The notes: generated from the letters alone by a model not told the origin. 64,000 nucleotides of DNA from Candidatus Gottesmanbacteria bacterium RIFCSPLOWO2_01_FULL_42_22 (GCA_001779315.1 MFJU01000006.1:2612-66611); one strand, 5' to 3'. Positions 10,450 through 37,741 are shown, numbered from the stretch's first letter. Translations and numbers: made by a program.

Positions 10450-10459
10450 ATGATTTTAA

Positions 10460-12415: not shown

Positions 12416-12421
12416 ATAAAA

Positions 12422-13090
12422 TTAGATACCTTCAACTAAAGGCTTGCTATAACCGATTGCTTCCCCCAATTTTTCACCGATTAAAGTCGGATTATAAATA
12501 TTATAAAAAAGCTCAACCAATTCCTGGGTCGGCAGCTGTCGGCCTTTAAGTCCGATCCTGCCTAATTGTCTTAAAATATGATCCCTTTTAGGATAAAGGG
12601 AGGTTTTGGCTCGGGAGAGGATATAATCCTTGGCAAAGGGGAGTTTTTTCTTTTTTCCGGATACAGAGAAAGCTTCTTTGATGCCTAATTCCAGGGGTGA
12701 AAAGGGCACAACCAGGTAGAATTTTTTTTCCAAAACCCTGTTTTCCTTAATAGTAGAAAGGATGAATTCACGGTAAGTACGAATTCTGTCCCTGATTACC
12801 GGATTCGGCTGCTTTGTTTCTTCCTGGACAATGTAGTCAATATAGGAGGAAATATCCATTCTTTTGGAAAGAATAACCACCTGCAGGGGAAAAGAGAGTG
12901 AATTTAAAAAAGAAGCATAAGCGTAAATAAGCGCATCCTGTTCATCTTCGGACAAAAGGCCGAAATTGACCGCTGTGGTTTCCAGAAGGACCGCCGCACC
13001 TGCCGTCCTTAAGATCAAAATATCATCAATAATATCCTCAATGTCCAGAAAATCCTGGGTGCTGGCTCTGATAGGCGCTGAATTTTGCAT
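12422..13090 (-). CDS. Hypothetical protein (T4SS-cluster associated)
   Basis: 222-aa ORF between the PrgI-like gene and virB4; no recognisable motif. Confidence 0.3.
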   Translation of the reverse strand: MQNSAPIRASTQDFLDIEDIIDDILILRTAGAAVLLETTAVNFGLLSEDEQDALIYAYASFLNSLSFPLQVVILSKRMDISSYIDYIVQEETKQPNPVIRDRIRTYREFILSTIKENRVLEKKFYLVVPFSPLELGIKEAFSVSGKKKKLPFAKDYILSRAKTSLYPKRDHILRQLGRIGLKGRQLPTQELVELFYNIYNPTLIGEKLGEAIGYSKPLVEGI

Positions 13091-13140
13091 TAAAAAAAGA
13101 CTTACCTATTATCCAATCAAGCGATAAACAAATCAACTGA

Positions 13141-14376
13141 TCAGATTCCGGGATTACTAAAAAGTTCTTTATTTAATTGTTCGCGGATTTGCTCTTTTTC
13201 TCCTTTGGCGCTGATTTCAATCGGGAGAAAAATTTTTCCCTCGAGATTGATTTCTGCGATATCAAAAGTATATCTTTTTAAAGGATCTTCAGCTTCCACA
13301 TAATATGTACCGTTTTGCAAGGGTGTGGCCGTCGAGAATTGTCCCAGGCGGTTGGTTTTTAAGGCGCGGTGAGGATTACCTTTGGTGTCTTTTATGGTCA
13401 GTATGATATTGGGCAACAATTTTTTACTGCTGTCTTTAATGATTCCCATAATAATATTGGGTGCTTGGGGCAATTTCGGGATACCGATTTCGTTTACAGC
13501 GCTTCTCGGGGTTACTGTTTTGATGGTTGGTTTGGCTGCCTCTTTTTCTTCTTTCGGTTTAATGATGGCCGCAGCAGATGTTTTAGCAAGCTCATCTTTC
13601 AGTTTTATTAATTCTTCTTCCAGTTTTTCTTTTTCCTCTCTCAAATTTATTATTTTATCTTCCTCTGCCGGTGGCCTACTTACAGGGAGGGAGACGGGTT
13701 TGACAGCGGGGATTGTTGTTTGAGCGGGAGGTGGAGAAGGAGTTTGTTGTAAGGACGCTACAGGAGGTTTAAGCGGTGCGACAGAAATAACAGGTTTTAT
13801 TTGAGGTTGAAAGGTGGCTGTCAATTTAGGCGGCTGGACAATGGTTGATTGAGGCATCGAAGGTTGAAAATTAGCCGCTAAGGTAGCGGCAGTTGTGGCA
13901 AAAAGCTGCATAGTTTGATCGACATAGTGTTTTTCCCTGATATTTATTTGCTGATAGGGTTGGGCGGGCAGGGACTGAAGATAATTTTCCAGTTTTTTTT
14001 TAGCATCGACATGAGCTTCCTGGTGATTTTGCGGCAGGACTTTTGTTTGGGCATTATAAGCATAGGCCAGAATATCCGGCATATCTTCGACCTTTTGCCA
14101 GAGGTATTGCGTCGGCGACAGAATGCTTTTGATAAAAGCGACAATCCATTTGTCCAGTGGCCTTTCTTGAATGGGCAGGAAAGCAAAGGCAAAGCCGGAT
14201 AAAACTGCGGCTCCGATAATCGGATATGACAAAAGAGGAGGCAAGGGTAAAGTCTTATAAAGGATAAAACCGATGATGAAACCGCTAATTAAATAGCCGA
14301 ATTGCCTTACCGTCATGTCCCCGATGAGATGGAATTGAAAACTGGAAATATTTCTGGGTATAGGGTGTTGCTCCAT
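13141..14376 (-). CDS. PrgI-like (VirB3-analogue) two-TM N-terminal domain fused to a long coiled-coil/Pro-rich extension and a C-terminal globular domain
   Basis: N-terminus DMTVRQFGYLISGFIIGFILYKTLPLPPLLSYPIIGAAVLSGFAFAFLPIQERPLDKW matches the PrgI-family pattern (T-RQ, two TM helices, G-PLD-W); 411 aa in total. Confidence 0.45.
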   Translation of the reverse strand: MEQHPIPRNISSFQFHLIGDMTVRQFGYLISGFIIGFILYKTLPLPPLLSYPIIGAAVLSGFAFAFLPIQERPLDKWIVAFIKSILSPTQYLWQKVEDMPDILAYAYNAQTKVLPQNHQEAHVDAKKKLENYLQSLPAQPYQQINIREKHYVDQTMQLFATTAATLAANFQPSMPQSTIVQPPKLTATFQPQIKPVISVAPLKPPVASLQQTPSPPPAQTTIPAVKPVSLPVSRPPAEEDKIINLREEKEKLEEELIKLKDELAKTSAAAIIKPKEEKEAAKPTIKTVTPRSAVNEIGIPKLPQAPNIIMGIIKDSSKKLLPNIILTIKDTKGNPHRALKTNRLGQFSTATPLQNGTYYVEAEDPLKRYTFDIAEINLEGKIFLPIEISAKGEKEQIREQLNKELFSNPGI

Positions 14377-14536: not shown

Positions 14537-17500
14537 ATGCCGGGTCAGCTTTTTAAGTTCACCAAATACTTTAAAAAAGATCAGATTAAGAATCAGCCTG
14601 ATGATACTACTAGTCAGGTTCAGGAAGGTTCAACTGCAGTTACTTATTCACAGGCAAGTCCAAGCCAATCACCGCCGCAAGCCCCGATCCAATCGGGGCA
14701 AGCATATTCCGGCATCGGCAAGCCGTCCGGTAGTCAACAGGCTTATTCCGGTATTGGCAATCCGCCGACCCCTCCTCCGCCTCCCACTGCTTCCGATCAG
14801 AATGCAGCGGGACAGGCAGGCAAGACCGGGCAAAATGCCGCTTCATCAATTGATATGGGTAAAAGAGTCGGCATGGACGTTCTCTCCCGGATGACTCAAA
14901 GGTCAAATGATATTCTGTTGAAAGCAGTCACCAAAGTCAAAGAGCTTAAGGGACAGCATATTGATACGGAACATGTTTTATGGGCCCTTCTTTCAGATTC
15001 GGCTATCTACCAGCTGATATCAGACTGTAAAGCTGTTCCTTCAGAAATCCAGGCAGAATTGGAGAAAAGTTTTAAAAAAGGCAATTTTTCAGGTAATCCC
15101 CAATTTTCTCCCAGGATCAAAAGAGTTTTGGAATTATCTTTATCAACGGCCAAATCATTAGGTTATGAATTTATTTCTCCCGAGCACATTCTTTTAGCCC
15201 TTTCCCATGAAGGCGAAGGCTTGGCCGCCCAAGTTTTGAATAAATTTCACCTGACACAACAAGTTTTAAATCAGAAAATAACCGGTAAGAAAGAACTGGA
15301 GAAGAAGGAAGATGCTAGGAAACAGACAACTTTAGAGCAGTTTACCGATGATCTGACAGCTAAAGCAGCGCGGGGCGAACTGGATCCGGTAGTTGGCCGG
15401 AGTTGGGAGATCGAAAGGGTGATTCATATACTTTCCCGCCGCACAAAGAACAATCCGGTTTTAATCGGTGATGCGGGAGTAGGTAAAACAGCCATAGTTG
15501 AGGGCATGGCCCAGAGAATTGCCACAGGTGATGTGCCGGAAACACTGCTGCATAAAAGGATTTTGCAGCTGGATTTGATGTCTTTGATAGCCGGGGCCAG
15601 ACATCGGGGCGAGTTTGAAGAAAGGCTCAAGAATTTAATCAAAGAAGTCAAGTCAGCTGCCGGTTCCATTATTTTATTTATTGATGAGCTTCATAACATG
15701 GTTGGTGCCGGTTCAGGCGGTGAAGGCACCATGGATGCTTCCAATATCCTTAAACCTTCACTCGCCCGCGGAGAGCTTCAGGTAGTCGGGACAACCACCG
15801 TCACCGAATACCGTAAATACATTGAAAAAGACCCGGCTTTGGAAAGAAGATTCCAGCCGATCATTGTGGCTGAACCCACGAAAGATATCGCGGTGGAGAT
15901 GCTTTTGGCCATCCGTGATAAATATGAAGCCTTCCACCGGGTCAAGATTCCGGATGAGACGGTTGAGGAAGCGGTCAGATTATCCCAAAGATATATTGCC
16001 GACCGCTTTCTGCCGGATAAAGCAGTCGACCTTATCGACGAAGCAGCGGCTGCCGTGAGATTACCGGCCATTTCGTTGCCTGAAGAAATCAAAAGCAGCG
16101 AAAACAAATTGAAAAAACTGGAGCACGAAAAAGGGGAAGCGGAAAAAGCAGGAGACACAGTCAGATTCGAAAGCCTGAAAAGGGAAATTGATGACATAGG
16201 TAAAAGCCTGACGGAACTGAAAGAGCAGTATCAAATCAAAAAGTCGACAACCACCAATTCCGTTAATAAAGAGGTCATTGCGGAAATTGTGGCTCGCTGG
16301 ACCAACATTCCGGTTTCCCGCCTGACGGAAAGCGAAGCGGTTAAACTTATGGAACTTGAGAAAACCATCCATAAAAGATTGATTGACCAGGAAGAAGCTG
16401 TCTCGGCTGTCTCTGAGGCGGTCAGGCGCGGACGCGCCGGTCTCAAATCCAACAAAAGGCCGATCGGCTCTTTTATTTTCATGGGTCCGACAGGAGTCGG
16501 TAAGACGGAACTGGCCAAATCATTAGCGGAAATCCTTTTCGGCAGCGAGGAAATGATGGTCAGGCTGGACATGACGGAATACATGGAAAAACATGAAGTG
16601 GCCAAACTTATCGGTGCTCCCCCGGGCTATGTCGGCTATGACGAGGGCGGGCAGTTGACAGAAGCGGTGCGCCGCAGACCTTATTCCGTAGTTTTATTGG
16701 ATGAAATCGAAAAAGCCCATCCGGACGTTTTTAATATATTGATCCAGCTTTTGGATGATGGCCGGCTGACCGATAACAAGGGACACACCGTTTCCTTTAA
16801 AAACTCCATCATAATCTGTACCTCAAATTTGGGAAGCTCCATCATTCAGGAAGAGATGCTCAGCTGGGAGCAGGGAAATCTGCCCGCAAGCATGCTTAAG
16901 GAAAAAACCAAAATGATCAGGACTTATGTTATCTCTCCTACCGGCCGCGAAATTATATCATTAGACGGAATCCTCTGGCAGAAAGACCCCGGGCAGACTC
17001 TATGGAAAAAATCGGACCTGAAAGAATATTTTGCCGGCAATCAGACAATCGGGGTAGCACCTCAAGAACCGACGACAGAACAATCTCCACAAACTGATAA
17101 GACGCAGCCGCAAAATCAAGCCCAAGCATCGGGCAATTTTCCCGGGAGTTTCGATACCCATGTAATCGGAGCTGACGGCAGTGAAACCATCACTTCTGAT
17201 GACACTCTCTGGTTCAGAACCTCAACCATATCCAAGGAATGGCATTCCTCAAAGCTTTTGGAGAATTTGAAAGACCATATTGTCATCAACGCCAAGCCGG
17301 ACAAGCCGGAAGAACAGCTGCCAACTGCTAAACTTGATAGCCATGCTGTCAATTTAAAAAATGAGGAGTTTATTTCACTCAATGACCGTTTCTGGATGCG
17401 GCCGAATTTACAGGTCAAAGACTGGACGACCGGCACCCTGGGGGAATATTTTGCCGATGCATCCGTTGAGGAGGAAGCTGTTGCTAACGAGGCAAAACCC

Positions 17501-18571
17501 GGATCCAAAGATGCCACCGCCAGCCTGATGCAGCAAAGACAGGCGAAAAAAGAGATTTTTCCGGTTGAGAAATGGGAGATGCATCTGTTTAAGCCCTCAG
17601 GTGAAGAAATTATTATTGCCGGGGGCAAATTCTGGCTTAAGAAAGATGCCGCGCAAAAAATTTGGCAGACAGGATCTTTGGAAAAATTATTTACCACTCT
17701 TAAGATCGAAGCTTCCGAAGAATTGCTGCCGGTGAAAGCGGAAAAGGAAACGAAAAGTCCCAAAGAAGAAGAGCAGTTTGAAAAGCTTTCCAAAAAACTG
17801 ATGGAGGAACTGCGGAAATTCTTCCGGCCGGAACTGCTTAACCGTTTCGATGAGGTAACCATTTTTCGCCCCTTGGGACCGGAGCACATGCTGGAGATCG
17901 TTGACCTGCAGATGACTACCTTGATTAAAATCCTCCAGGAACAGGGCATTGGTCTGGCTGTTTCCCCCAGCGCCAAACTTTACCTGGCCGAGATCGGTTT
18001 CGACCCGATCTTCGGCGCCCGGCCTTTGAGAAGGACAATCCAGAGAGTGATTGAAAATCCGGTTTCCTCCTTTCTTATTAAAGGGGAGTTGTCAGCCGGA
18101 GACACGATCAATGTCGACTACAACAACAAGGAACTCACTTTCGATATTAAAAAAATGGTTCCTCTGAAAACTGCTGATAAACAGGCAGATGAAAAAGCTG
18201 TCACACCTGAAGAACCTAAAGATAATTATCTCTGCCAGACGTGCGGTCATGCCTGGTCAGTTGAGAAAGGCCTAAAAACGGAAATTTGCCCTGCCTGCCA
18301 GGCTACAGCTATTGCCTTGGTTGTCCCTGCCAAGGAAGAAAAGGCGGTTGCTGAAGTTGCTCCGCCGCCGGTAGCAGCGGTTACAGAAACCCCGTCATCA
18401 CAAGTCCCGACGCCGCCGCCGGCAGCCAATCCGCCAGCCAGTCCTCCGGTTAATCCCCCGCCTTACCAAAATCCGTTGGAAAATTATTTTACTGCTACAG
18501 CCGACAGTGCCCAGGGACAAGCGGCGGCACCCTCGAGGGATCCAAACGCTCCCCCAGCAACTACTGTCTGA
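14537..18571 (+). CDS. Atypical ClpC/ClpB-family AAA+ chaperone (two AAA modules) with Q/P-rich N-terminal extension, a ~330-aa repeat insertion in D2, a C-terminal zinc ribbon and a Pro-rich tail
   Basis: Clp_N repeats, Walker [12 protein letters not shown] (D1) and [12 protein letters not shown] (D2), short UVR-like linker. Between the sensor-1 ICTSNLGS and ELLNRFDE there are four ~30-aa repeats of the form [IV]-[ST]-x-[DNG]-[DG]-x2-[LF]-W-x9-W-x3-G-[ST]-L-x2-[LY]-F; C-terminus [23 protein letters not shown]. 1344 aa against ~810-870 for canonical ClpC/ClpB. Confidence 0.7.
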
Positions 18572-19256
18572 CATCATTTTGCTGAAGTTTTTTCCCCAGA
18601 GACAGACATAAGAAAACCGATAAATCGATGGCAGCCGCAATTGACAGATAAATATTCAGTTTTGCTAAATATGAAGAGACGCTATCGATAAAGCGCTGAT
18701 TCGCTTCAATTGAGAGGCCGGACAAATGGCCGGCTAAGAGCAAAAGCAGTAAAATGGGTAAAACCATCACAAAACTTTTTAAATCCCTTTTGCTGGAAAA
18801 CATGCCTGAAGTAATTTGAAATAGGGCAATAAACCCCATTATTTTAAAGATAAAATTTTCGCTTTTTAAAAGCATTGACACGTCGCCGATCAGAAATATA
18901 CCGGCCAGCCAAACACAGGCAATTCCGGCAAACATGGGGGCAAGTCCGATCAGGCTTAATCTGAACGGATCGGCATGCCCGACCATGAGATGACCGGCTT
19001 TGACTTCCCCGTTTTTTTCAAATGTTGGAAAGATAGTCATCGAGCCGGTGGGAACGCGCAAAATAGTGGCCATCAGAAAGTGCGATAGCTCATGAACTAT
19101 TGTTCCCGGCAGAAAAGTCAGGGCAATAATCCAGACGGAAAGATGTTTCCGGCGGCTGATCTGAAATACAAACTGGAAAAAATACTTGACCGATTTTTTT
19201 ACAATGAGATATATCAGTATTATTAGTAAAAAGAAGAGAATCAGTTGCAGAAGCAT
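18561..19256 (-). CDS. Integral membrane HExxH metalloprotease-like protein (M50B/DUF3267-like)
   Basis: 231 aa, about 6 TM segments; HELSH motif in [15 protein letters not shown]. Confidence 0.35.
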
Positions 19257-19279
19257 GATTGGCTTTTTTTATACTTGTC

Positions 19280-21022
19280 TTATCCTTGACGATGATCCTC
19301 AAGAACCGTTCCGCTTTCCAAACCCTGTTGGATTTGCGAGGAAAACATAGCGGCCATCAGCATCATCAGCTTTAGTTTATCTGCTAAATGCATGTTTCTG
19401 ACCACTTCTATACCATCAAACTCATGGATTATTTTATTTGCTTCAAGACGTTTAAATAGAAGGTTATTCAACTCGGATTCAGGCAGATTTTTTTCGGTTT
19501 CGGTAAGAGTAGATCTGACTACCCTTTCATTATGATGTTCCAGCCAGGCAGCCGGATCACCAATTTCCATAAGATCGATGCCCATAGTTTCCATTCTTTC
19601 GTTAACTCCGTCAAAAAGAGTTTCATCTGTGCATAAACTCTTGATAAATGTTTTTTCACCTGGACTCAATTGCATTCCTGTTTCTTTAACTAATTGATCG
19701 TACGTTCCATCAAAGTCAAAAAAAATACTCCCCTTTTTCCTGGCAATATGCTGGAAGCGGGCTCCTAATACAAGAATCCCGACGCGTGATAATTGTCCAT
19801 TTATTATATCCTGGTATAATTGCTCAGGTTCTTTCGAGACTTGTTGAAGCAGAGGACGAATAATTTCATTATCGAATTTAAATAAGCCTACATCAAGAGT
19901 TTTTAATACATTCGGGTCTGAAAATTCTTTATTTATTTTTTCCAGGACAGGCTTAAGTATATTCTGCATATTTTCCGGCAATCCTTTTATATACTCTTCG
20001 CCGGACATCTCCTGGAAATGGCTGTAAAGAAGGCCTGCTACCATCTGTTTGTTTCTGGCCAGCGCTTTGGGGGCAAGTTTAATGTCGCCGTTATTTAACG
20101 AGGTATATCCCTCGTAGAGATATTCCAGCCAGGCGATCATCTGGTTTGGCGAAAAGACTTTTTTTAATGCTTCCGGATCATTGACATCAATCCCGTCAGC
20201 CAGCGCCAGTATGTCGTGAATGGTATTCTTAGTCTCGTTATAAACAATCTCTTCAGGGCCAAGATTTTCCATATCCTCAGGTTCTTGAGGCTGTTTTTGT
20301 TCCTGTTGCCCTTTCACCGTATCATCCCGGCCTATAAATCTTATTGTCACCCTGTCATTTAGCCGCTTATCCGGTTTTTCGGTTTTTAATATAGCTGTTT
20401 TTGCCTTAAGCCTGAAAGCATATTGAGTCAATGGGTCCAGTGCATCAAAACCACTGTCATTGGCAGCAGGATTTTTTGTATCAGCCTTCCAGATGGATCT
20501 GGCCCTGGAAGTTATTTCTTCATTCCATTGTGCCAATGTGACAGGTTCGTCCCTTCCTGTAATTGTAACTTCTGTACATTCGGCCAGATTTTCCAACGTT
20601 GCAGTAGCATCATCGTGAATTTGTTGTTGATCATCCGTTTCGGCCGGAGTCGCCTTCAGGCGTTCTAAATTATCAATTACCTCTGCAAATGATTCTTGTT
20701 GAAGTTTTACAATTTGTTCCGCAGTTCTCTCTTTGGCAGGAGTTTCAAAAAAACTGCTTAACCTTTTTCTCGCTTCCTCAATTTCTTCATCAGCGCGGGA
20801 AACAGTATCAGCCAATGAAGCCCTTATTTTTTCATCTTCAATTGAAGTTAGTTGTGTGGCAATTTCTCCCGGGGTGGATTCACGGACGGATTTACCTTTA
20901 TCCAGCAATTGATTAGCCCGCAAAGTAGCAGAATTCAACTTGCCTATCTCTAAAGGTTTAAGTTTTTCTCCTGCCATTATTTGTCGCGGAATTGCTTCGA
21001 CTGCAGGGAGTGCTATGGTCAT
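19280..21022 (-). CDS. Large hypothetical protein (580 aa), acidic, no recognisable domain
   Basis: Long clean ORF, no TM segments; co-directional with and directly upstream of the HExxH membrane protein. Confidence 0.5.
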   Translation of the reverse strand: MTIALPAVEAIPRQIMAGEKLKPLEIGKLNSATLRANQLLDKGKSVRESTPGEIATQLTSIEDEKIRASLADTVSRADEEIEEARKRLSSFFETPAKERTAEQIVKLQQESFAEVIDNLERLKATPAETDDQQQIHDDATATLENLAECTEVTITGRDEPVTLAQWNEEITSRARSIWKADTKNPAANDSGFDALDPLTQYAFRLKAKTAILKTEKPDKRLNDRVTIRFIGRDDTVKGQQEQKQPQEPEDMENLGPEEIVYNETKNTIHDILALADGIDVNDPEALKKVFSPNQMIAWLEYLYEGYTSLNNGDIKLAPKALARNKQMVAGLLYSHFQEMSGEEYIKGLPENMQNILKPVLEKINKEFSDPNVLKTLDVGLFKFDNEIIRPLLQQVSKEPEQLYQDIINGQLSRVGILVLGARFQHIARKKGSIFFDFDGTYDQLVKETGMQLSPGEKTFIKSLCTDETLFDGVNERMETMGIDLMEIGDPAAWLEHHNERVVRSTLTETEKNLPESELNNLLFKRLEANKIIHEFDGIEVVRNMHLADKLKLMMLMAAMFSSQIQQGLESGTVLEDHRQG

Positions 21023-21114
21023 ATATTGTTACTATTACATAACATACACCCAATATCAACGCAGATAGCAGATTGGTTGATAGGTGAAGGTGGGTGTGTT
21101 ATCTTTGATGTAAC

Positions 21115-24100
21115 ATGCCCGACGAACCCTTGCCGGCAAATATTCATCCTGCAGACACAAATGGTAACCTAGACAATCCACCACTTGCTGATGATGCTTC
21201 CGGCGGTTCAAACAGTGGCGTTTCAAGCGGACTTGATAATAGTTTCACTCCCAGAGCCGGCGGTTGGTCAAGAGGTGAGGCAGTCAGAGGTGAGTACCGG
21301 GGTAAAACCGAAATTTTGACACCGGAAAGTGAAATTGATTTCGGACCGGAAACGGAATACCGCCTATGGCGCAAAGTCAACGAATTGTCCAGCATCATGG
21401 GTGACAACCCGGGAGTGGGACTGACGGGTTTATATATAAAAGATAAAAATGCAGATTGGCGGACACAAGCGATATCAGCATCATGGCAGGAATTCGGAGG
21501 TATCCTAGACCAACTGGATATTATCAGCCAACAGCTGGCTGAAAAAGCCGTTGAGATAGCGGCAGCAACAGTCGGTCCTACAAAGACAAAGCTTGAAAAT
21601 GAGCGGGATGTGTTTATAAAAGAGAGGGATAAGCTTATAAAGGTGAAGGATGAAAGGTCACAAACCCTATCAGGACAGCACATATTTGGCGGGATTGTTG
21701 AAGCGATGCAGGCCAACTATTTTGTCGCCCAGCAGGAATTGGCAATTTCAGCTCAAGTCGGCTTAGCCCTCTCCAAAGACCAGGATAGAAATTTAGCTTT
21801 TGTTTTACCAACCCCCCAGGATATTGACATAATCTTACAGCAGGCGATTCCTGCTGCTGACAGAGGGAAATTAATCTACCTGAAAGAGAAGTTGGGCATA
21901 AAAGGATTATCGGATAAATTAAAAGCAAAACATCTCTATTTAATTTTGAGCGAGCTGGCTGTTGGAGGGGCTGCTGATTTGGCCGTGACACAGTTATTAA
22001 ATAATCCGTCACTGGGGAAAGCTGCCGGAATTGGCGGAGTTGCTTTGGCGGGTTTACACTCGGCAGCACTTATCTTCCGTTCTGTAGGAAAAGCAGTAGA
22101 GAGAGGGCATGCTGAATGGCAGCTGGCCCAGCCTGAAGGAAAACCTGAAGAAAAACTCACATTTAAATTGACTCTGACTGATACTGGCAGACGGCTGACC
22201 AGAGATCCTAATAATCCCATTTCCAGGCATTTCTCGGGGGTGGAGGGGACAAGGAATGCCGTCAGATTTCTGACAGAAAGCGAGACCGTCCGCGCGGAAA
22301 TCGCCCATTCTCTTAGGGTGGAGCCTTGGCAGATAGATCTGGCAGCTCCTAAAATGGCAATTGCCGAAGGCCGCGGCCAGGATACAATTTTGAACGGTTT
22401 AGCCCAGGATTATAAGGTCATAATTTTAGAGAGGCAGTTCAAACATGCGGATGGCTCTGTTATGCGTTTTGACGAATTGACGTTGGAACAGCAATCAGAT
22501 GTCTGGAGCCGGGCAATAGATATGGCCATGCAGCAATTCGGCGGAGATGATATCCGGAGAAAACTTGAGGAAGTAGCCAAGCGGGAAGCCAGAGGAGAGA
22601 GACCGGAAAGGTTTGAGGGAAGGAATGGAGAATTAATGGAACGGGCCCAGCAACTTCGAAGCGGTCAGTTCACCGAGGAAACTGCATCATCCCAAACAGC
22701 TGCCGAATTATCAAAGGAAAAACAAAAGAAACAGAATAGTATGGAACGGATGGCAGCGGCTAAAGAAAGACTGATAACTTTGGCAGTGGAAATTACTACT
22801 AAGGAAAATGAACGGGCTAGCGCTCAAGAAAATTTAGCTTCTGCCAAAGATGTCAGGGGTAGGCCGACCGTGATAAAGATTGATCCGACAGATTCTAACA
22901 AAATTATTGTCGTCAGTAAGGGGACGGGAGAGATCGGGCAACTGGAGGAACAAAAAAAGCGTGCAGAGGCGCAATATCAAACAGCTTTTGAAGCTAATGG
23001 AAGTTACGTTTTAAACGCATCAGGAGTATACGTATCCCAAGGCCTGACAAATAATATTGTTCAAGCTGATTATCAGCTATCTAGGGCAACGGACAGAAGG
23101 ATGCAGGCAGAAAGGACTTTAAAAGAGAGAACAGAAAAACTTAAGCGTTTAAAACAAGAGTTTGCCCGAAATGAAACAGCAACTAAAAAACTATCCCCAG
23201 ATACTGTTACACAAAAGAAAAATGAAATTGAACAGCTTGAAAAAGATGATATTACAGCTGAAGGCAGTATTGCCCAATCTGATGAAGAATTTAAAAAAAC
23301 TACTGAAGAGGAAGCGGGCAAAAAAGCGCTAAGTAAAAACCTTCATGATATCTACGATAAAAATGATAGACTGATTCAAAAACTTGACGGAGAAGCTACC
23401 CAGGTGGGTTCATTAGCCTGGTTTGATGCTCAAATTATTGCCGCTGTCGAGGATGTCGCTAATAAGGAAAAGGTCGTTAAGCAGAAAAAGCGTGAATTAC
23501 AAAGACTGCTGAAAGATCGAAATCAGCTTCTGACCGATGCTTTTGGGAAAGGCATCGCCGGTCAAAATCCTTCCGTTGCCGCAATTGCAGATATCATCTC
23601 CTCAGCCAACTCCGACCTGACAAAGACAGAAGAGGAAATTGCTAATCTTCAGACATTGGAAGCGGCCGGAGGCAGGAAACCGACTGAGGAGGAATTAGAA
23701 AGGGCTGACGCCATTGAACTGGCAGCCGGCTTGGAAACACCTGAAAAAATCAACGAATTGGAAATGATACTCCTCCGCGGTGGATTAACGAAAGAACTTG
23801 TGGTGACACATGGTGATAAAGGTATCCGTTTGCTCTATGAAGCTATGTTCGGAAGCACTGCCGTCCTGGAAGGGAAGGGCGGTAAATATCGTTTAGCCAG
23901 GAGACTGCTTTCCAAAGGCATGATCGTGGATAAGGCTATTGTCTCTTCAGGACTTTGGGGAATCGCTGAAAACCTGGATGCTTTTTTCGGAGGCAGGAGC
24001 GATTTAAAAGCAGAATATCATAAGGCACAAACCAATATTGCCTTAATTGAAACTTACAGGAGGGAAATCGCTGAACTTCGCATAAGGGGAGAAAATGATA

Positions 24101-25191
24101 AGGCAAACGGAAGGCTGGTGGACATAAGGCGATTGCAGCAGGAAAACGACCTGAAGCTGGGCCTGGTCTACGATGAGCTGGTGACTCCCCTATTATGTTT
24201 GGATGAAGTTAAGACAGCCGGTCTGATGATATCCCTTGCCGATGATATTTACGAAAGATGTAAGCAATACAATCCCTTTGGTGAAATAATCGGCCACCCG
24301 CAGCAATTTCAGGACAGGGAAATACGATCGACAGCCAATGGGGAGGTTACGGTCTATTATCCGGAGAGGAATGACAATGGCAGTCTTAAAAAAAGATCAA
24401 CCGTTATTGTGGAAAACCCAGGAGGAAATAACGGTATCCGCTATGAGGTTGGTATTGACAATACTGCTCCTGAAGGAAAATTACAGTTGACTGCCGCTGT
24501 TCCCAAATCAGACCAAATCCTTGACAAATTACCGGATACAGTTGTTTCCACAATGCCGGAAGAACTCAAATTTTTCTTTTACGATCCGCTAACGTTAAAT
24601 AAACGGGCAGATATTTCCCGGATCAATGCTTTTATTGACGGATTGACCGATGTTGCAGCCGTACAGGCTCTAACTGGAAATAAGGCGATCATCAGAATGC
24701 TGTTTAAGGTTACCAGTGAAGGCCCGCCGATAACCTACGGGGATAAAATAGCATCATCAGAAATAGCCCAGTTTGTCATTAGAAGAGATGCGGTTACTAT
24801 TTCAGATTTAACCGCGCTGGAATCGGAAATAGATGCAATACTGACAGGTACACAAGCTGACTTTATGCATTCGCTGGGTAATGCCTTAATTTATAACTCT
24901 TCAGAAGAAAACCGGCAACTTTATCAGGAGCACTTTCGCAGAGTTGGTATAGTCCCTTCACCCCAGACTTTTGCCGGGTGTGACTATTTTGTGATTCAGA
25001 ATGAATCAGGCAGACTGATTGCATATTATCAAAATCCATCTAATAATCGAGATGAGTCGTTAGAGTTGTATCAGATAATTGAGCAAAGGAGAATCCCTTC
25101 CTTAAATTATAATCTAAGCCAGGATGAGATTAATGCCTTGCTTCAGAGGGCAGCTGCTGAAGGATTTACAGCAATGCGGAAAGTCAGTTAA
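21115..25191 (+). CDS. Giant hypothetical protein (1358 aa) with Ser/Gly-rich N-terminus, long central coiled-coil and a distinct C-terminal globular domain
   Basis: Long clean ORF divergent from the 580-aa gene; extensive E/K/Q-rich heptad-like stretches between residues ~480-900; no catalytic motif recognised. Confidence 0.5.
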   Translation: MPDEPLPANIHPADTNGNLDNPPLADDASGGSNSGVSSGLDNSFTPRAGGWSRGEAVRGEYRGKTEILTPESEIDFGPETEYRLWRKVNELSSIMGDNPGVGLTGLYIKDKNADWRTQAISASWQEFGGILDQLDIISQQLAEKAVEIAAATVGPTKTKLENERDVFIKERDKLIKVKDERSQTLSGQHIFGGIVEAMQANYFVAQQELAISAQVGLALSKDQDRNLAFVLPTPQDIDIILQQAIPAADRGKLIYLKEKLGIKGLSDKLKAKHLYLILSELAVGGAADLAVTQLLNNPSLGKAAGIGGVALAGLHSAALIFRSVGKAVERGHAEWQLAQPEGKPEEKLTFKLTLTDTGRRLTRDPNNPISRHFSGVEGTRNAVRFLTESETVRAEIAHSLRVEPWQIDLAAPKMAIAEGRGQDTILNGLAQDYKVIILERQFKHADGSVMRFDELTLEQQSDVWSRAIDMAMQQFGGDDIRRKLEEVAKREARGERPERFEGRNGELMERAQQLRSGQFTEETASSQTAAELSKEKQKKQNSMERMAAAKERLITLAVEITTKENERASAQENLASAKDVRGRPTVIKIDPTDSNKIIVVSKGTGEIGQLEEQKKRAEAQYQTAFEANGSYVLNASGVYVSQGLTNNIVQADYQLSRATDRRMQAERTLKERTEKLKRLKQEFARNETATKKLSPDTVTQKKNEIEQLEKDDITAEGSIAQSDEEFKKTTEEEAGKKALSKNLHDIYDKNDRLIQKLDGEATQVGSLAWFDAQIIAAVEDVANKEKVVKQKKRELQRLLKDRNQLLTDAFGKGIAGQNPSVAAIADIISSANSDLTKTEEEIANLQTLEAAGGRKPTEEELERADAIELAAGLETPEKINELEMILLRGGLTKELVVTHGDKGIRLLYEAMFGSTAVLEGKGGKYRLARRLLSKGMIVDKAIVSSGLWGIAENLDAFFGGRSDLKAEYHKAQTNIALIETYRREIAELRIRGENDKANGRLVDIRRLQQENDLKLGLVYDELVTPLLCLDEVKTAGLMISLADDIYERCKQYNPFGEIIGHPQQFQDREIRSTANGEVTVYYPERNDNGSLKKRSTVIVENPGGNNGIRYEVGIDNTAPEGKLQLTAAVPKSDQILDKLPDTVVSTMPEELKFFFYDPLTLNKRADISRINAFIDGLTDVAAVQALTGNKAIIRMLFKVTSEGPPITYGDKIASSEIAQFVIRRDAVTISDLTALESEIDAILTGTQADFMHSLGNALIYNSSEENRQLYQEHFRRVGIVPSPQTFAGCDYFVIQNESGRLIAYYQNPSNNRDESLELYQIIEQRRIPSLNYNLSQDEINALLQRAAAEGFTAMRKVS

Positions 25192-25209
25192 TATAAATAA
25201 AATGTAAAT

Positions 25210-25563
25210 ATGCAGATATCCTTAAAATCACTTTTGCTGGCAGCCAATTATCCCGAGGAGGAAGTAGGGCTACTCCTGTCAAAAGAAGAATTTTTAACTG
25301 ATGAGGAAAAATTTAAGCTGACTGAAACCGCCTGGTATTTGATCTCCCAAAAATATATTTCAATGCAGAATTTACATAATACTCAGGTTTGGAGGGAGAT
25401 TGGTGAAGGTAAGAGAAAATATAATAAGAATGATTTCGAAGAAATTAAGGCAAGATTAATTCACGAAATAATCGAAAAACTGGAAATCACAAATGAACAA
25501 ACACTAATTGATGAAGTCCGGCAAAAGCTGGAGAAATTTAAAACTGAAAAAGCTAATTCCTGA
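25210..25563 (+). CDS. Hypothetical small protein (117 aa) immediately downstream of the giant ORF
   Basis: 18-nt spacing from the preceding stop; acidic and helical; no motif. Confidence 0.35.
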   Translation: MQISLKSLLLAANYPEEEVGLLLSKEEFLTDEEKFKLTETAWYLISQKYISMQNLHNTQVWREIGEGKRKYNKNDFEEIKARLIHEIIEKLEITNEQTLIDEVRQKLEKFKTEKANS

Positions 25564-25673
25564 AATTTTAAAAATCCAATTTTAATTAGGAAATGTTCTC
25601 CGTTTCCTTTCCCGTAAAAATTAAGTATCATTTAGGATAGAAGCAGATAATGCGTTCGTATTAGTTTCAATCT

Positions 25674-26096
25674 ATGGATTCCGTAAATGTCTTTACTGAT
25701 GGGGGAGCCAGGGGCAATCCGGGGCCGGCGGCTATCGGTGCGGTAATAATAGCCGAACCTGGAATAAAGACCTATAGGATTTCGCGAAAAATTGGCTCAA
25801 CTACCAATAACGATGCCGAGTACCAGGCGGTTTTGGCCGCCCTAGTTTTTTTGAAGGATTCTAAAAATATATTGGGAATTTACGAAAAAACTGTTATTAA
25901 TTTCTATTCCGATTCGACTTTGATCGTCAATCAGATTAACGGGCTGTTTAAAATTAAGCAGCCCCTTTTTAAGGAATATTTTTTGAAAATCAGATACCTG
26001 GAGCAGGAAATAAAAGCTAATATATATTACCGGACAATACCCAGGGAAAAAAATACGGAAGCTGATAAACTGGTTAATCAGGCTTTAGATGAATAA
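25674..26096 (+). CDS. rnhA: Ribonuclease HI
   Basis: VFTDGGARGNPGPAAIGAVI (catalytic Asp/Glu region of RNase H type 1); 140 aa. Confidence 0.8.
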   Translation: MDSVNVFTDGGARGNPGPAAIGAVIIAEPGIKTYRISRKIGSTTNNDAEYQAVLAALVFLKDSKNILGIYEKTVINFYSDSTLIVNQINGLFKIKQPLFKEYFLKIRYLEQEIKANIYYRTIPREKNTEADKLVNQALDE

Positions 26097-28380
26097 CATA
26101 ATTGAAAACACCTCGTCGCTTTTAGCCCTGGTCACCGGACGCTGGGACGGGGTTCATATTTTGGCGGAAAAATTAAGAAAGGGCAACTGCCAGGTTATCG
26201 CCACAGACAAATTACCAACCAGCGGTAAATTTGACTATATATTCCTTTTCGGTTCGGTAGAGGATGCCTATCAGGCATTTTTGAAATTACTGAAGGAAAA
26301 CAGCCGGATGCTGCTTATAACCGGCCACAGGGATGAGGATTTAAGTAAACTCGAAAATTTGGATAACATCAAAATTGTTAAAGTAAGGGATTTATCAGAC
26401 TGGAATCAGGAGGAACTCTCTGAAATTTTACTAAAAATAATTTTTACACCGTCAGTCAAAAAAATCTTTACTCTTAAAAGCAAAAATGGGTCGAGTAGTA
26501 AAAAACCGGATAAAATCCGCCGCATAACAGAATATCCTGTTTCGGCGATTACCACCAGGAAAATCAGAGGTTACCTGCCTGTTTTACTTTCTTTGTTTGT
26601 CTTTGCAGTTTTAATCGGGGCCAGCACATTCGTCTGGTATTTTTATTCAGTAAAAAATATTTTTACCGATTTAAAAAATAATTTAACTGTAGGGAATATG
26701 GAGGAGGTGCGCCTGAATTTAGCCAGCGCCGAAGATAAAATAAAAATTGCCAAGGGACTGTTTAATACGACCTCCGTAGTTTTCTTCCCGCTTAAAAACT
26801 CCACGTCTTTGCTTAATCTGGGACAGATGATTGATTCAACCGACCGCATGCTGACAGTTGTCCATGGATCAATAAATTTAATTGATGAAATAAAAGCCGG
26901 TAATCAAAATTACCCCCTGGTCAATTTTAACTTTTCCAAAAGCAATTTTAACTCGCTGGTGGAGACGGTGTCAGCCCTTGACTTTGCGGCAGGAGATCTG
27001 CAGGAAAAAATCGTATCGACCCAATTACCGTATTTTCCGAAAGAGAACCTTTTGCCGATGATAGTAGAAGCCAGACAAAATCTGGCCTCAGTTAAAGAAA
27101 CTGTGCCGGTATTGGAAACGGTATTTTCCTCTCCTTCCCCTAAGACATATCTTTTACTTTTCCAAAATAACATGGAATTGCGGGCAACCGGCGGTTTTAT
27201 CGGTTCTGTCGGATTATTGACTATCACCAGCGGCTTAATAGAGGATTTCAGGATAATGGATGTTTATAGTTTGGACGGGCAGTTAAAAGGACATGTCGAA
27301 CCGCCTCTGCCCATACGATTGTATTTAAACCAACCGAACTGGTTTCTCAGAGACAGCAATTTTGATCCTGATTTTGCCAAAGCCTCCATTCAGGCCGAAT
27401 GGTTTATCAGAAAAATATTGAATAAGGAAATTGACGGGGTGATCGGTATAAACCTTTTTTTTGTCCAGGATTTATTGGCAGCTGTCGGGCCGGTAACTTT
27501 GGCTGATTTTGGCAACGAAGTTATAACTGCAGATAATTTATTCGTCAAAAGCCAGCTGCACATCCAATCCGGTTTTTTCGAAGGTTCATCCACCAAAAAA
27601 GATTTTCTGACCGCACTCTCCCAAAGTCTACAGACGAAAGTTTCCGCGGAAAAAACTTCAATTTTCAAATTAGCCCAAGTAGTTAAAAAATCATTGGACG
27701 AGAAAAATATCCTTATTTACCTCAATGACGGGACCGGCCAGAATAAAATCGAACATCTGGGATGGGGCGGCAGAATCTTCAGCGTCAATTGCTTAAGCCG
27801 CGAAGAAAATTGCCTTGCCGATTATCTGTATCTGGTTGACAGCAATTTAGGTGTTAACAAAGCCAACTTTTTTATCAAAAAATCAGCCAATATCAGAAAA
27901 AAAATCAATAAGGAAGGACAAATAGAAACCGAGCTGGAAATAAGTATGGAAAATCAGGGATCTTCAGCCTATTTACAGGGCGGGGTTTATACCGATTATT
28001 TAAGAATAATCGTACCGCGCGGCAGCCGTTTGGTTTCTGCCAATCTTTCAGGCAGGGAAATAGAAAAATCTTCCATTGAAAGCAGCGATTACCAGACTGA
28101 TAAAACATCTTTTGGGATGCTTCTCAAGATTCCTGAATTGAAATTAAGCCGACTTTTTCTTACATTCCTCCAGATGAACCCTGTAAAAAATAATATCCGC
28201 GAGTATCAGTTTTATATGCAAAAGCAACCCGGGGACAAGTCATACAGTTTCAATCTGGCAGTTGAATCAGCCAAAATTAATTTTCAGCCCAAGAATTTCT
28301 CTTCAGTTACCAAAGAAGGCATCAATATTGCTTCGGATACTTCAGTTGACCGTATATTTACTTTCAATGTCAGCCCTTAG
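26089..28380 (+). CDS. DUF4012 domain membrane protein (cytoplasmic N-terminal domain, single TM, large extracytoplasmic DUF4012 region)
   Basis: Motif NMELRATGGFIGSVGLL typical of DUF4012; TM helix LPVLLSLFVFAVLIGASTFVWYF; 763 aa. DUF4012 proteins commonly pair with LCP enzymes. Confidence 0.55.
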   Translation: MNNIIENTSSLLALVTGRWDGVHILAEKLRKGNCQVIATDKLPTSGKFDYIFLFGSVEDAYQAFLKLLKENSRMLLITGHRDEDLSKLENLDNIKIVKVRDLSDWNQEELSEILLKIIFTPSVKKIFTLKSKNGSSSKKPDKIRRITEYPVSAITTRKIRGYLPVLLSLFVFAVLIGASTFVWYFYSVKNIFTDLKNNLTVGNMEEVRLNLASAEDKIKIAKGLFNTTSVVFFPLKNSTSLLNLGQMIDSTDRMLTVVHGSINLIDEIKAGNQNYPLVNFNFSKSNFNSLVETVSALDFAAGDLQEKIVSTQLPYFPKENLLPMIVEARQNLASVKETVPVLETVFSSPSPKTYLLLFQNNMELRATGGFIGSVGLLTITSGLIEDFRIMDVYSLDGQLKGHVEPPLPIRLYLNQPNWFLRDSNFDPDFAKASIQAEWFIRKILNKEIDGVIGINLFFVQDLLAAVGPVTLADFGNEVITADNLFVKSQLHIQSGFFEGSSTKKDFLTALSQSLQTKVSAEKTSIFKLAQVVKKSLDEKNILIYLNDGTGQNKIEHLGWGGRIFSVNCLSREENCLADYLYLVDSNLGVNKANFFIKKSANIRKKINKEGQIETELEISMENQGSSAYLQGGVYTDYLRIIVPRGSRLVSANLSGREIEKSSIESSDYQTDKTSFGMLLKIPELKLSRLFLTFLQMNPVKNNIREYQFYMQKQPGDKSYSFNLAVESAKINFQPKNFSSVTKEGINIASDTSVDRIFTFNVSP

Positions 28381-29523
28381 GTCAGGTAAATAGGCTGACA
28401 GAAGCGATTCGGCTTTTGCCATATATTGCCCGTTTTGAAAAGCAGTCATTTCCTGAAGATAGTTGTTTAAGACCTCATTTAGCTCTGATTTCTCGATTAT
28501 TGACCGGCTATAAACTTCCAAAAGGCGGTAATGCAGGTCCTGCCTTTCAGCTTCATTTTCCAGCTGAAGCCAAAGTTTTTGAGAGAACGGAGTCTCGATA
28601 ATTTTCCTGGCTGATTCTGTTTTGCCGGATTTAAGCAGATTAGAAGCGCGCAAGATTAAATTTTCCTGATAATCAACTAAATTCTGCTGGTATTGCCAAA
28701 ATGACTGGTCTTTGTCCTCCGGCTGGTATTCAACTTCCGGCAGATGAAGATCCCTGACATATGGCGACTGTTTGGGCAGAGTTTCCAATAAGATATTATC
28801 GGGATTTTTATAGACCCCGTTTTGATAAAAAGATTGAAGCAGATACTCCGCCTGATGATAAGTCAAATCAGTATCAACCGTATTTAAAAGCCATGATTTT
28901 ATACTTTGAGGCATATTATAAAATTCTTCAAAATGGGTAGTGATCATATCTTTAATAAAAAGAGCCTGATTGTGACTCCGCTGATTGTCACCGATAGCGT
29001 ATTGGCGTGACCTTAGAAACTGTAAAGTTGAGGTGGTCGGCATTTTTAAAGTCCTGAAGATTCCCAACGTTTCGGAAAAACCGATTTTAACTACCGCATC
29101 TATTTTTATTTGGGACATTTTCTCAATTTGCCCTATGGTATATTCAATACCGTTCCGGCTGCAGCTGTTAGCCAGATAGGTGGAATCGGTTTCAGGGGAG
29201 AGAAAAGTCCCGCGGGGGATGGAGGAAATAAGCAAATAATTGAATTTGGGAGAAAAACTGAAGATATGTACGGCATCGCAGCGGGGTTTATTATCACCCT
29301 TTCTGCTGTCCAGCCCCAGAAGCAGGATATGATATTCCCTTTCAGGGATAGAATCTTCATCATCTGCCGAGAGCGAAATATTTGATTTTGTTTCAGCTGA
29401 TTCTTTGACTGATACAGGGTTAAGCAGTATTTTAGGTCCGGAATTTACGGCAAACAAGGCAGTCAGGAACAGCAAATTGACAAACAAAATGGCTGACCAG
29501 GAAAAATAATAAAATTTACCCAT
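28342..29523 (-). CDS. LytR-CpsA-Psr (LCP) family cell-envelope phosphotransferase
   Basis: Signal/TM N-terminus, then ILLLGLDSRKGDNKPRCDAVHIFSFSP (LCP N-terminal signature LLLG-DSR...R-D-I); 393 aa; convergent with and overlapping the DUF4012 gene. Confidence 0.6.
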   Translation of the reverse strand: MGKFYYFSWSAILFVNLLFLTALFAVNSGPKILLNPVSVKESAETKSNISLSADDEDSIPEREYHILLLGLDSRKGDNKPRCDAVHIFSFSPKFNYLLISSIPRGTFLSPETDSTYLANSCSRNGIEYTIGQIEKMSQIKIDAVVKIGFSETLGIFRTLKMPTTSTLQFLRSRQYAIGDNQRSHNQALFIKDMITTHFEEFYNMPQSIKSWLLNTVDTDLTYHQAEYLLQSFYQNGVYKNPDNILLETLPKQSPYVRDLHLPEVEYQPEDKDQSFWQYQQNLVDYQENLILRASNLLKSGKTESARKIIETPFSQKLWLQLENEAERQDLHYRLLEVYSRSIIEKSELNEVLNNYLQEMTAFQNGQYMAKAESLLSAYLPDLRADIESKYTVN

Positions 29524-29582
29524 CTATCTCATTATAGGCAGGTAGTTTTTTTATTTTCAACAAGCCTGTGCCAAAATTTCAG

Positions 29583-29611
29583 TTGACTTATGGTAATTGA
29601 ATCTTTACAAT
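29583..29611 (+). promoter_or_regulatory. Sigma-70-type promoter for rplY (-35 TTGACT 29583-29588, 17-nt spacer, -10 TACAAT 29606-29611)
   Basis: Near-consensus hexamers with ideal spacing; the predicted TSS (~29618) falls 2-3 nt before the ATG at 29621, implying a leaderless or near-leaderless mRNA. Confidence 0.6.
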
Positions 29612-29620
29612 ACTAGGATT

Positions 29621-30319
29621 ATGAATAAGACTTCCTTACCTGCCAAGCTCAGGACTGTTTTAGGCAGAAAAATCAAACAGCTGAGAAAACAGGGATTATT
29701 GCCTGCCAATATTTACGGCAAGAAAGTCAAGTCCCAGGCTGTTTCTGTTGACGCCAAAAAATTTGCAGAAGTTTTCTCCAAAGCCGGAGAGACAGGTTTA
29801 TTGGAATTGGAGCTTGATGGCAAAAAACTGCCGGTTCTCATACATAACGTTTCCTATCATCCGGTCACAAATCAGACATTACATGCCGATTTCTACGCGG
29901 TTGATCTGAAAGAAAAGGTAGAAGCCAACGTGCCTTTGCTGATTATTGGCGAATCACCTGCTGTCAAGGATAAAACCGGGGTGCTGTTGATAAATTTGGA
30001 TGAACTGCATGTGGAAGCCTTGCCCCAGGATTTACCAGAGAAAATAGAAGTGGATATTGCCAATTTAGTCAAGCTGGATGATGCAATTAAAGTAGCAGAT
30101 TTGCCGGTTTCCGACAAAATCAAAATCCTGACTGATCTTGAACTGGAAGTAGCTAAAATCGCCCCATTAGTAGTCAAAGAGAAAGTTGAAGAAGCCCCCA
30201 TAACTGTTGCTGTGGAAGGAGAAGAGGGAGAAGCAGCTGAAGCGGTTCCAGGTGAGGAAGCTAGTGTACCTGAAAAAGGAGATAAGAGTGAAAAACCGGA
30301 AAATCAGGCCAAGCAGTAA
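29621..30319 (+). CDS. rplY: 50S ribosomal protein L25 / general stress protein Ctc
   Basis: LRTVLGRKIKQLRKQGLLPANIYGK N-terminus typical of L25; acidic C-terminal extension. Start moved to 29621 because the track start at 29597 would include the promoter. Confidence 0.75.
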   Translation: MNKTSLPAKLRTVLGRKIKQLRKQGLLPANIYGKKVKSQAVSVDAKKFAEVFSKAGETGLLELELDGKKLPVLIHNVSYHPVTNQTLHADFYAVDLKEKVEANVPLLIIGESPAVKDKTGVLLINLDELHVEALPQDLPEKIEVDIANLVKLDDAIKVADLPVSDKIKILTDLELEVAKIAPLVVKEKVEEAPITVAVEGEEGEAAEAVPGEEASVPEKGDKSEKPENQAKQ

Positions 30320-33997: not shown

Positions 33998-34393
33998 TTA
34001 TTTTATTTTTAAATTCTGCAGCATGGCTCCCGGATCAAGAATATTTATGCCCAGCACTTTTCCGATTAAGGCTACAAAAACCCAGGCAAAGATGACAATA
34101 ACCAACCCGATTACGGCATTAGTCATTTTCTGCCTGGCGGCTTGAGTGTTATTTTTGTCACCTCCGGCGCTGATCCAGTTGAAGCCGGCAATTATAAATT
34201 GGATCATGAACCAGATAGCAGCTACAATGGTCAGAAAGCCCAATACTGTACTGAGGATTTTATTAAGTATGTTGCCGGTTTCCTGAGCGGTATCTGCCTG
34301 TCCGCTGCAGAGAAGTTTGGCAATCGGTCCCAGACCTTCGCCGCCGCCGATACAATCGTCAGCCCGGACAACTTCAGGAAAAAAAAAATTCAT
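33998..34393 (-). CDS. T4SS-pilin-like small two-TM protein (paralog 2 of 4)
   Basis: 131 aa; IIAGFNWISAGGDKNNTQAARQKMTNAVIGLVIV, conserved with paralog 1. Confidence 0.5.
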   Translation of the reverse strand: MNFFFPEVVRADDCIGGGEGLGPIAKLLCSGQADTAQETGNILNKILSTVLGFLTIVAAIWFMIQFIIAGFNWISAGGDKNNTQAARQKMTNAVIGLVIVIFAWVFVALIGKVLGINILDPGAMLQNLKIK

Positions 34394-37723: not shown

Positions 37724-37741
37724 AAAAGTTAAGGAATTACG

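Follow-up and report, generated by a model that had tools for sequence, protein, structure and literature searches.

Near the replication origin of Candidatus Gottesmanbacteria bacterium RIFCSPLOWO2_01_FULL_42_22, a member of the Microgenomates/candidate phyla radiation (CPR), a 5.28-kb cassette is replaced by a deeply divergent allele in a close relative with which the surrounding proteins are 92-96% identical. The cassette lies in a 64,000-nucleotide (nt) stretch of this genome (GCA_001779315.1 MFJU01000006.1:2612-66611), here called the window. It carries a gene for a giant protein of 1358 amino acids (aa), the gene for its 117-aa partner directly downstream, and the 5' part of a divergently transcribed gene for a 580-aa mosaic protein. 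Our preferred but tentative reading, in which function is drawn from sequence, is that these genes may form a lineage-specific specificity module that is swapped by recombination and linked to a neighboring type IV secretion system (T4SS). The T4SSs of Patescibacteria are widespread and, in one tractable lineage, essential for epibiotic growth, and neither an effector nor an adhesin has been recognized in them (PMC12102498, PMC10633639). Orphan genes that sit next to a T4SS and are swapped as a block between otherwise near-identical strains make a concrete candidate specificity or effector module, and the sharp breakpoints of the block provide a ready population-genetic assay. The genes and segments concerned are listed below, with positions counted from the first letter of the window; L002 is the contig of the close relative.

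18561-19256, minus strand: 231-aa open reading frame (ORF) for a membrane protein with an HExxH motif, 3' of the 580-aa gene and outside the swapped cassette
19280-21022, minus strand: 580-aa ORF
19280-20309, minus strand: C-terminal module of the 580-aa protein (about aa 239-580), in the conserved flank and fast-evolving
20310-21022, minus strand: N-terminal module of the 580-aa protein (about aa 1-238), inside the swapped cassette
20310-25587, no strand: allelic cassette of 5.28 kb, made up of the N-terminal module of the 580-aa gene, the promoter region, the giant gene and the 117-aa gene
21023-21114, no strand: divergent intergenic region, 92 bp between the two start codons, inside the cassette and with no nucleotide similarity to L002
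21115-25191, plus strand: 1358-aa ORF of the giant, an acidic orphan protein
25210-25563, plus strand: 117-aa ORF of the soluble partner, 18 nt past the stop codon of the giant gene

Public assemblies carry identical calls for all four genes, and homologues align with the giant starting at residue 1. An earlier note on this DNA, which had proposed a toxin-immunity arrangement for the giant and the ORF behind it, gave ORF sizes, positions, the 92-bp gap and the 18-nt spacing that agree exactly with our ORF calls and with those assemblies. The gap was also said to hold a shared divergent promoter; promoter-like hexamers occur there on both strands, as consensus matches only, so the gap itself stands and the promoter is a candidate.

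The central observation comes from the comparison with L002, which is syntenic with the window. The proteins encoded in its flanks are almost the same as those of the window (231-aa protein, 92% identical; ClpC-like ATPase, 94%; RNase H, 95%; DUF4012 protein, 96%), whereas the two giants are only 19-23% identical and the two small ORFs 39%. At the nucleotide level the flanks are about 94% identical: blastn aligns window positions 15439-20309 at 91.7% and 25588-30243 at 95.5%, with nothing in between, and the identity of the flanks stays at about 90-96% right up to the junctions (20309 and 25588), which are thus sharp breakpoints. L013, a more distant locus, has its right junction at the identical base. 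When the window is compared with L003, the giant is 31% and the small ORF 60% identical, while the flanks are only 53-73% identical. Because the giant and small ORF of the window are nearer to those of less closely related organisms such as L003 than to those of L002, the history of the cassette is incongruent with that of its flanks. Alleles about 80% different between flanks that are 92-96% identical are in favor of the earlier suggestion of host-interaction machinery, the locus behaving like one involved in interaction with a host or an enemy.

The window allele itself is found in at least 24 contigs and several metagenome-assembled genomes, which differ by 1-3 residues in 1358 (>99.7% identical). 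Ongoing hypermutation was rejected, the members of this allele cluster being nearly identical. We found no direct or inverted repeats flanking the block and no repeats like those of diversity-generating retroelements (DGRs), and for that reason a shufflon, a DGR or a flanking-repeat mechanism was rejected as well. With regard to a DGR target in particular, long repeats are absent and the neighboring RVT_3/RNase_H gene is an RNase H. Judged by these comparisons, the alleles are old, discrete and stable, and we infer that homologous recombination in the flanking conserved DNA exchanges them and that local hypermutation does not generate them. A chimera in the L002 assembly is an unlikely source of the pattern, since L002 is consistently 4-8% different from the window in both flanks, its left junction keeps an intact 569-aa ORF, and its cassette matches no other contig of the same sample.

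The left breakpoint cuts through the 580-aa gene. The C-terminal module of its product is 81-83% identical to L002 (81% over the last 337 residues), with 87-94% nucleotide identity up to position 20309, while the first 240 or so residues cannot be aligned to L002. At the N-terminus, the L004 and L010 proteins share 28-29% identity with the N-terminal module of the window; at the C-terminus, they are unrelated to the window protein. The C-terminal module of the window resembles only that of L002, and the one of L010 resembles that of L003. Profile-profile comparison of the module types gave no similarity, at low sensitivity owing to thin profiles. On these alignments, N- and C-terminal modules of unrelated types are combined in the 580-aa protein, which is thus a mosaic. 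Between the window and L002, its C-terminal module has a ratio of nonsynonymous to synonymous substitution rates (dN/dS) of 0.50, as against 0.09-0.24 in five flanking genes with similar dS. Two loci have small extra genes between the mosaic gene and its downstream neighbor, namely a DUF5678 protein with a 65-aa ORF in L003 (4451-4842, minus strand) and an aspartyl-protease-like ORF in L011 (279-871, minus strand); the mosaic-gene side of the locus therefore also takes insertions. Paralogy of the 580-aa and 1358-aa proteins was considered, and none was found on comparison.

In contrast to the mosaic protein, the giants do not shuffle. An alignment of 10 giants is collinear along the full length, with divergence spread evenly. 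Nine of the 10 reach the C-terminus and all nine are homologous there, while the remaining one (P0007) stops at about residue 980. Shuffling of C-terminal domains was the check that the earlier note had set for its own toxin-immunity reading, with the lack of it counting against that reading; the giant homologues show none, sharing instead a C-terminal domain and a conserved A-M-R end. Modular shuffling is, on this evidence, a property of the 580-aa protein and not of the giant, which was unexpected.

The 117-aa partner is present in all 12 loci examined, and its gene always lies directly downstream of that of the giant (3-30 nt). It has the conserved motifs LLK.ANFP, AWY.ISQKY and GKRKYNPNDFEE and keeps invariant motifs across all alleles. 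Its conservation exceeds that of the giant (37-82% versus 18-56% identity), and across 45 pairs the identities of the two proteins are correlated (Spearman 0.78). Because the small ORF accompanies the giant everywhere and diverges along with it, it can be regarded as a cognate partner of some kind, and the combination of conservation and co-variation in these sequences fits a dedicated binding partner. The earlier note had described it as acidic, which applies mildly to the window protein (isoelectric point 5.3) and not to the family, where values range from 4.8 to 9.2. In L013 (5749-10354, plus strand; Gottesmanbacteria GW2011_GWA2_43_14), the 1443-aa giant runs 80 nt into the small ORF, and its final 25 or so residues are unlike the conserved C-terminus, which may reflect a frameshift or an assembly error near the 3' end.

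The family is narrowly distributed. When 1.84 billion representative proteins were searched exhaustively by HMMER with residues 159-1358 of the giant, only 10 matches were returned, comprising eight long relatives (1041-1739 aa, 25-34% identical to the query) and two short fragments. Word-indexed searches with the full giant and with the family alignment recovered the query only, probably because charged coiled-coil words swamped the candidates. Every contig that could be placed belongs to Gottesmanbacteria and has the same divergent arrangement, with a gene of 486-619 aa on one side and a gene of 114-135 aa directly 3' of the giant, some being cut by contig ends. A profile of the small ORF matched two of 185,579 GTDB species representatives, both Gottesmanbacteria, and three loci in JGI metagenomes, and found no relatives in IMG/VR. 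The module thus appears only in Gottesmanbacteria, as the earlier note's description of a lineage-specific unit had it, and a literature search found no published description of the trio.

The giant, the small ORF and the mosaic gene occur together in every locus. In L015, a nucleoside 2-deoxyribosyltransferase-like gene takes the place of the gene for the HExxH protein ahead of the trio, and behind the trio (8364-9690, plus strand) come three paralogous membrane proteins of about 120 aa instead of the RNase H and DUF4012 genes. The module can therefore occupy another neighborhood. Since the flanks of L015 differ and the HExxH protein is missing there, the core unit is the trio, consisting of a mosaic protein of about 530-620 aa, a divergently encoded giant of about 1350-1740 aa and a partner of 114-135 aa, with the HExxH membrane protein as a usual companion. 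In the two loci with enough sequence, the trio lies beside a T4SS-like cluster near oriC.

No family could be assigned to these proteins. The 580-, 1358-, 117- and 231-aa proteins had no usable match in Pfam, NCBIfam, PADLOC or PHROGs, and scans of the other family members gave nothing usable either. The two large proteins had been described before as matching no recognizable family, and searches of these libraries and of the PDB leave that description unchanged. For the giant, sequence analysis and AlphaFold2 models give the following architecture.

About aa 1-55: disordered N-terminus
Following it: conserved motif RGxAVxGE...DFGPExEYxLW, with a helical region next
Aa 273-324 (nt 21931-22086, plus strand): conserved Gly/Ala-rich hydrophobic hairpin
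Aa 330-480: conserved region
Aa 480-865: charged helical/coiled-coil region, interrupted
Aa 865-1358: multi-domain C-terminal region with no fold match; homologues end in A-M-R-[KR]

The central region had been taken for a coiled coil of about 400 aa; heptad periodicity is significant in only two stretches (about residues 505-560 and about 729-812), which a Gly/beta-rich insert (about 580-650) separates. Similarly, what had been described as a C-terminal globular domain of about 250 aa proved to be a region of about 490 aa with several sub-domains. The AlphaFold2 model of aa 865-1358, built with 8-9 homologues, has a predicted local distance difference test (pLDDT) score of 84 and contains a helical bundle, a beta unit and two alpha/beta units. 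Foldseek searches with this model against the PDB and BFVD found nothing significant, with no match at E<0.3. The model of aa 52-505 (pLDDT 66) is mostly helical and also had no significant match in the PDB; its top matches were AhlC, SmhB and XaxB, soluble forms from tripartite alpha-pore-forming toxins (E 0.3-1.6, template modeling score about 0.12, not significant). Sequence and profile searches of the PDB returned only coiled-coil noise (gp26 needle, tropomyosin, SipB).

The hairpin, which the earlier note did not mention, is the sole hydrophobic stretch of the giant; it is bipartite and lies at the same position in nine of 10 homologues. None of the giant homologues has an N-terminal Sec signal, a Walker A, HExxH or LPxTG motif, or any catalytic motif that we could find, and all are acidic, with an overall net charge of -20 to -53. 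Some giants carry a C-terminal repeat of about 47 aa (LPxDR...G.P....D..Y.....KR), with 10 copies in L004 and two to four in L002, L009, L010 and L013, while the same repeat model detects none in the window giant. Sequence and models together show an acidic, largely helical and elongated protein with a conserved hairpin and a C-terminal region unlike any solved or viral structure searched.

The link to secretion comes from the neighborhood of the trio, whose remaining features are listed below.

6148-7521, plus strand: dnaA, in the replication origin region that the window covers
7717-8826, plus strand: dnaN, beside dnaA
8785-14376, minus strand: T4SS-like gene cluster, adjoining dnaA/dnaN and with the same order in L004
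Within 8785-14376, minus strand: 554-aa protein with two transmembrane segments, a member of the cluster
10460-12415, minus strand: VirB4-like ATPase of the cluster
Within 8785-14376, minus strand: TraC-like 222-aa protein of the cluster
13141-14376, minus strand: PrgI (VirB3)-family protein of the cluster, 411 aa
14537-18571, plus strand: ClpC/ClpB-like ATPase of unusual length (1344 aa), past the T4SS genes and before the four genes of interest
33998-35051, minus strand: T4SS_pilin/VirB2-like array of three genes (131, 117 and 102 aa), about 9 kb further downstream

The start of the giant is 6.7 kb from the PrgI, TraC-like and VirB4 genes. Past the 117-aa gene come genes for RNase H, a DUF4012 protein, a LytR-like protein and L25. 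The trio lies between VirB4/TraC-like/PrgI/ClpC on one side and RNase H/DUF4012/LytR/L25 on the other both in the window and in L004, a 1.1-Mb contig that is collinear with the window from VirB4 to L25. VirD4, VirB6 and a relaxase were not recognized in the scanned part of the window. The T4SSs described in Patescibacteria are chromosomal, often near dnaA and relaxase-less (PMC12102498), and variable pilin arrays are reported to be typical of Microgenomatia; the cluster in the window matches these origin-proximal systems. Their catalogue lists no adhesin, effector or known substrate (PMC12102498), and in a Saccharibacterium the T4SS is essential for epibiotic growth (PMC10633639). Because the T4SS is widespread in CPR and the module is not, the module would be a lineage-specific accessory and not a core part of the system. 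As a separate observation, the pilin array lies upstream of a gene for an extracytoplasmic function (ECF) sigma factor at 35069-35719.

Under the T4SS-linked reading, alleles would be exchanged through homologous recombination in the flanks and kept by diversifying or frequency-dependent selection. The determinant they encode would be one that physically meets another organism, for instance a phage or the host cell of what is presumably an episymbiont. The giant would be exported by the neighboring T4SS or work at it, its hairpin would be inserted into a membrane, and its variable C-terminal and repeat region would give target specificity in the manner of a translocator or an adhesin. The 117-aa protein would be the dedicated binding partner of the giant, as chaperone or adaptor, and the 580-aa mosaic a second specificity or accessory factor. 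Several known systems resemble this arrangement. The IpaB/SipB proteins of type III secretion systems with their partners IpgC/SicA, VirE2 with VirE1 of the Agrobacterium T4SS, and AhlC/XaxB/YaxB of the ClyA family are likewise elongated and helical, with a single hydrophobic hairpin, no Sec signal, a neighboring gene for a small partner and a secretion-system cluster beside them. Unlike in those systems, the giant is 3-5 times larger and has no significant match to them (SipB, E 0.83; AhlC, E 0.3, probability 0.16), its partner has no identified tetratricopeptide repeat or chaperone fold, and the apparatus is a monoderm-type CPR T4SS without known substrate. A second likeness is to the VirB2-like pilin arrays of Patescibacteria T4SSs, which are near dnaA and highly variable (about 25% identity), a variability suggested to be an adaptation to different host strains (PMC12102498). 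The trio is not among the T4SS components catalogued in PMC12102498 and, unlike them, occurs in a small Gottesmanbacteria clade only.

Several observations weigh against this interpretation. Secretion and membrane insertion of the giant are predictions only. The hairpin is moderately hydrophobic (Kyte-Doolittle mean over 19 residues, 1.3-1.75) and its pLDDT in the AlphaFold2 model is below 50. The C-terminal 25 residues of the giants are only weakly positive, with a net charge of -3 to +4; set against the strongly negative whole proteins, and together with the A-M-R-[KR] end, this is no more than suggestive of a C-terminal translocation signal. The likeness to alpha-pore-forming toxins, at the values given above, is a lead only. 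The coupling protein VirD4 is not nearby. The link to the T4SS is circumstantial, being one of adjacency within one narrow clade, where the synteny may simply be inherited, and in L015 the trio stands in a different neighborhood with no T4SS gene on the 10-kb contig. The earlier note had asked whether the small ORF is conserved with the C-terminal domain of the giant; it is always linked to the giant, and tight linkage of the two genes could by itself explain their co-variation in place of co-adaptation. Finally, the contrast between close flanks and divergent cassettes comes from a single contig pair (the window and L002), and the clade is small and uncultivated. Allelic interaction cassettes that are swapped by recombination next to a secretion system are familiar as a pattern; the proteins themselves are orphans without family or fold match. 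It would go further to propose that the giant and its partner are the first identifiable substrate/translocator pair of the relaxase-less Patescibacteria T4SS, with the cassette encoding the host range of the episymbiont as a balanced polymorphism maintained by recombination among co-existing strains; we consider this rather unlikely.

The main rival, which we also judge unlikely, is that the giant is an envelope or surface protein independent of the T4SS, resembling an S-layer protein or a phage receptor and undergoing antigenic variation under phage pressure by means of slpA-like cassettes. Replacement of a whole cassette with sharp junctions is what such loci display. At loci such as the slpA/cwp cassette of Clostridioides difficile or pilin and O-antigen loci, too, discrete alleles of deep divergence occupy one fixed site framed by conserved flanks, with sharp breakpoints and with each allele stable in its population. 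An acidic, elongated giant without enzymatic motifs and with a variable number of repeats would suit a surface role, and the L015 trio lies away from the usual neighborhood. In these homologues, however, there is no Sec or lipoprotein signal, SLH domain, cell-wall-binding domain or sortase motif, so that a surface protein would still need a dedicated export route, and this explanation gives no role to the small soluble partner that is always linked. The cassettes also differ in that the boundary here cuts the 580-aa gene and thereby creates mosaics, and in that the proteins here have neither an export signal nor a known surface anchor.

A polymorphic toxin with its immunity protein, as the earlier note proposed, now seems improbable. 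In this scheme the C-terminal region of the giant would be a toxin against competitors or hosts and the 117-aa protein its neutralizer. The layout agrees with that of Rhs, CdiA and LXG toxins, in which a large protein is followed by a small cognate ORF and the locus is polymorphic between strains and subject to recombination; here too the small ORF always follows closely with divergence tracking that of the giant, and close strains differ strongly at the locus. In addition, the top Foldseek match of the C-terminal model is colicin E3, which at E 0.44 is not significant. The reading nevertheless fails because C-terminal domains are not swapped, no toxin fold was found and the giant is less conserved than its partner. 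Nine of 10 giants have a homologous C-terminal domain, with no sign of the conserved N-terminus and swapped C-terminus of polymorphic toxins, nor of a recognizable trafficking domain, and such shuffling as occurs is in the divergently encoded 580-aa protein. Searches of Pfam, NCBIfam and the PDB, and Foldseek searches of the PDB and BFVD, found no toxin family, catalytic motif or fold. A partner that is better conserved than the giant and carries motifs invariant in all alleles is unusual for an immunity protein.

We give a similarly low probability to a role in defense against phages or other mobile genetic elements, in which the locus would be a variable hot spot and the giant a coiled-coil sensor or scaffold acting with accessory proteins and with the membrane protease as effector. 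Large coiled-coil proteins and membrane effectors are found in known defense systems, and defense hot spots typically differ by whole multi-gene blocks between genomes that are otherwise nearly identical. The PADLOC matches are, however, marginal and short (E 0.005-0.04), and no nuclease, ATPase or other catalytic motif was found. Moreover, the site is always filled by the same gene family and not by different systems, and the family is absent from all other lineages, whereas defense systems usually spread horizontally. A fast-evolving CPR housekeeping protein near oriC, with a cytoskeletal, chromosome or division role like that of SMC, EzrA or DivIVA, is very improbable despite the long charged helical regions, the proximity to dnaA/dnaN and weak PDB matches to coiled-coil segments including SMC arms: those matches are generic coiled-coil noise (E>0.1), in keeping with our finding no homology to SMC or other housekeeping proteins, and the reading fails because ATPase heads and Walker motifs are missing and is largely refuted by the allele pattern, with about 20% identity where neighbors are 92-96% identical and confinement to one small clade.

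Two of the neighboring genes have features of their own. The 231-aa protein has five hydrophobic segments and an HELSH motif, and the motifs LPGTxxHExSHF, DPFR and MFSSKKD are kept in 5-6 homologues. It had been described as membrane protease-like; the polytopic topology and the conserved HExxH motif agree with this, while Peptidase_M50 (PF02163) matched only three of six homologues, weakly (best E 0.025) and below the curated cut-off. From its sequence, it is possibly an M50-like intramembrane metalloprotease, and it is not beside the trio in L015. The ClpC-like ATPase is extended at its N-terminus by a Q/P/S-rich segment. After residue 780 or so it carries about 330 inserted aa, in which four repeats of about 70 aa can be seen by eye (...LW.K......W....L.EYFA...), and it has a C-terminus with a CxxC...CxxC zinc-ribbon-like motif and a Pro-rich tail. 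Its homologue in L003 has 1068 aa and aligns over residues 1-783 only, and the insertion is therefore variable. Since this ATPase keeps its position, with the T4SS genes on one side and the cassette on the other, one may ask whether it is a secretion-associated unfoldase.

The window also contains features unconnected with the module. An AdoCbl-II (cobalamin) riboswitch at 55721-55795 (plus strand) scores 45.5 bits, with a gathering score of 36.5, and precedes an 877-aa ORF at 55941-58574. A gene for HMG-CoA reductase (E 1.6e-110) is followed by one for an HMG-CoA synthase/KAS III-like protein (36575-38776, plus strand), both being mevalonate-pathway genes in a reduced CPR genome. A tRNA-Ile gene with anticodon TAT at 62500-62574 (plus strand) would read AUA directly and not via a lysidine-modified CAT tRNA.

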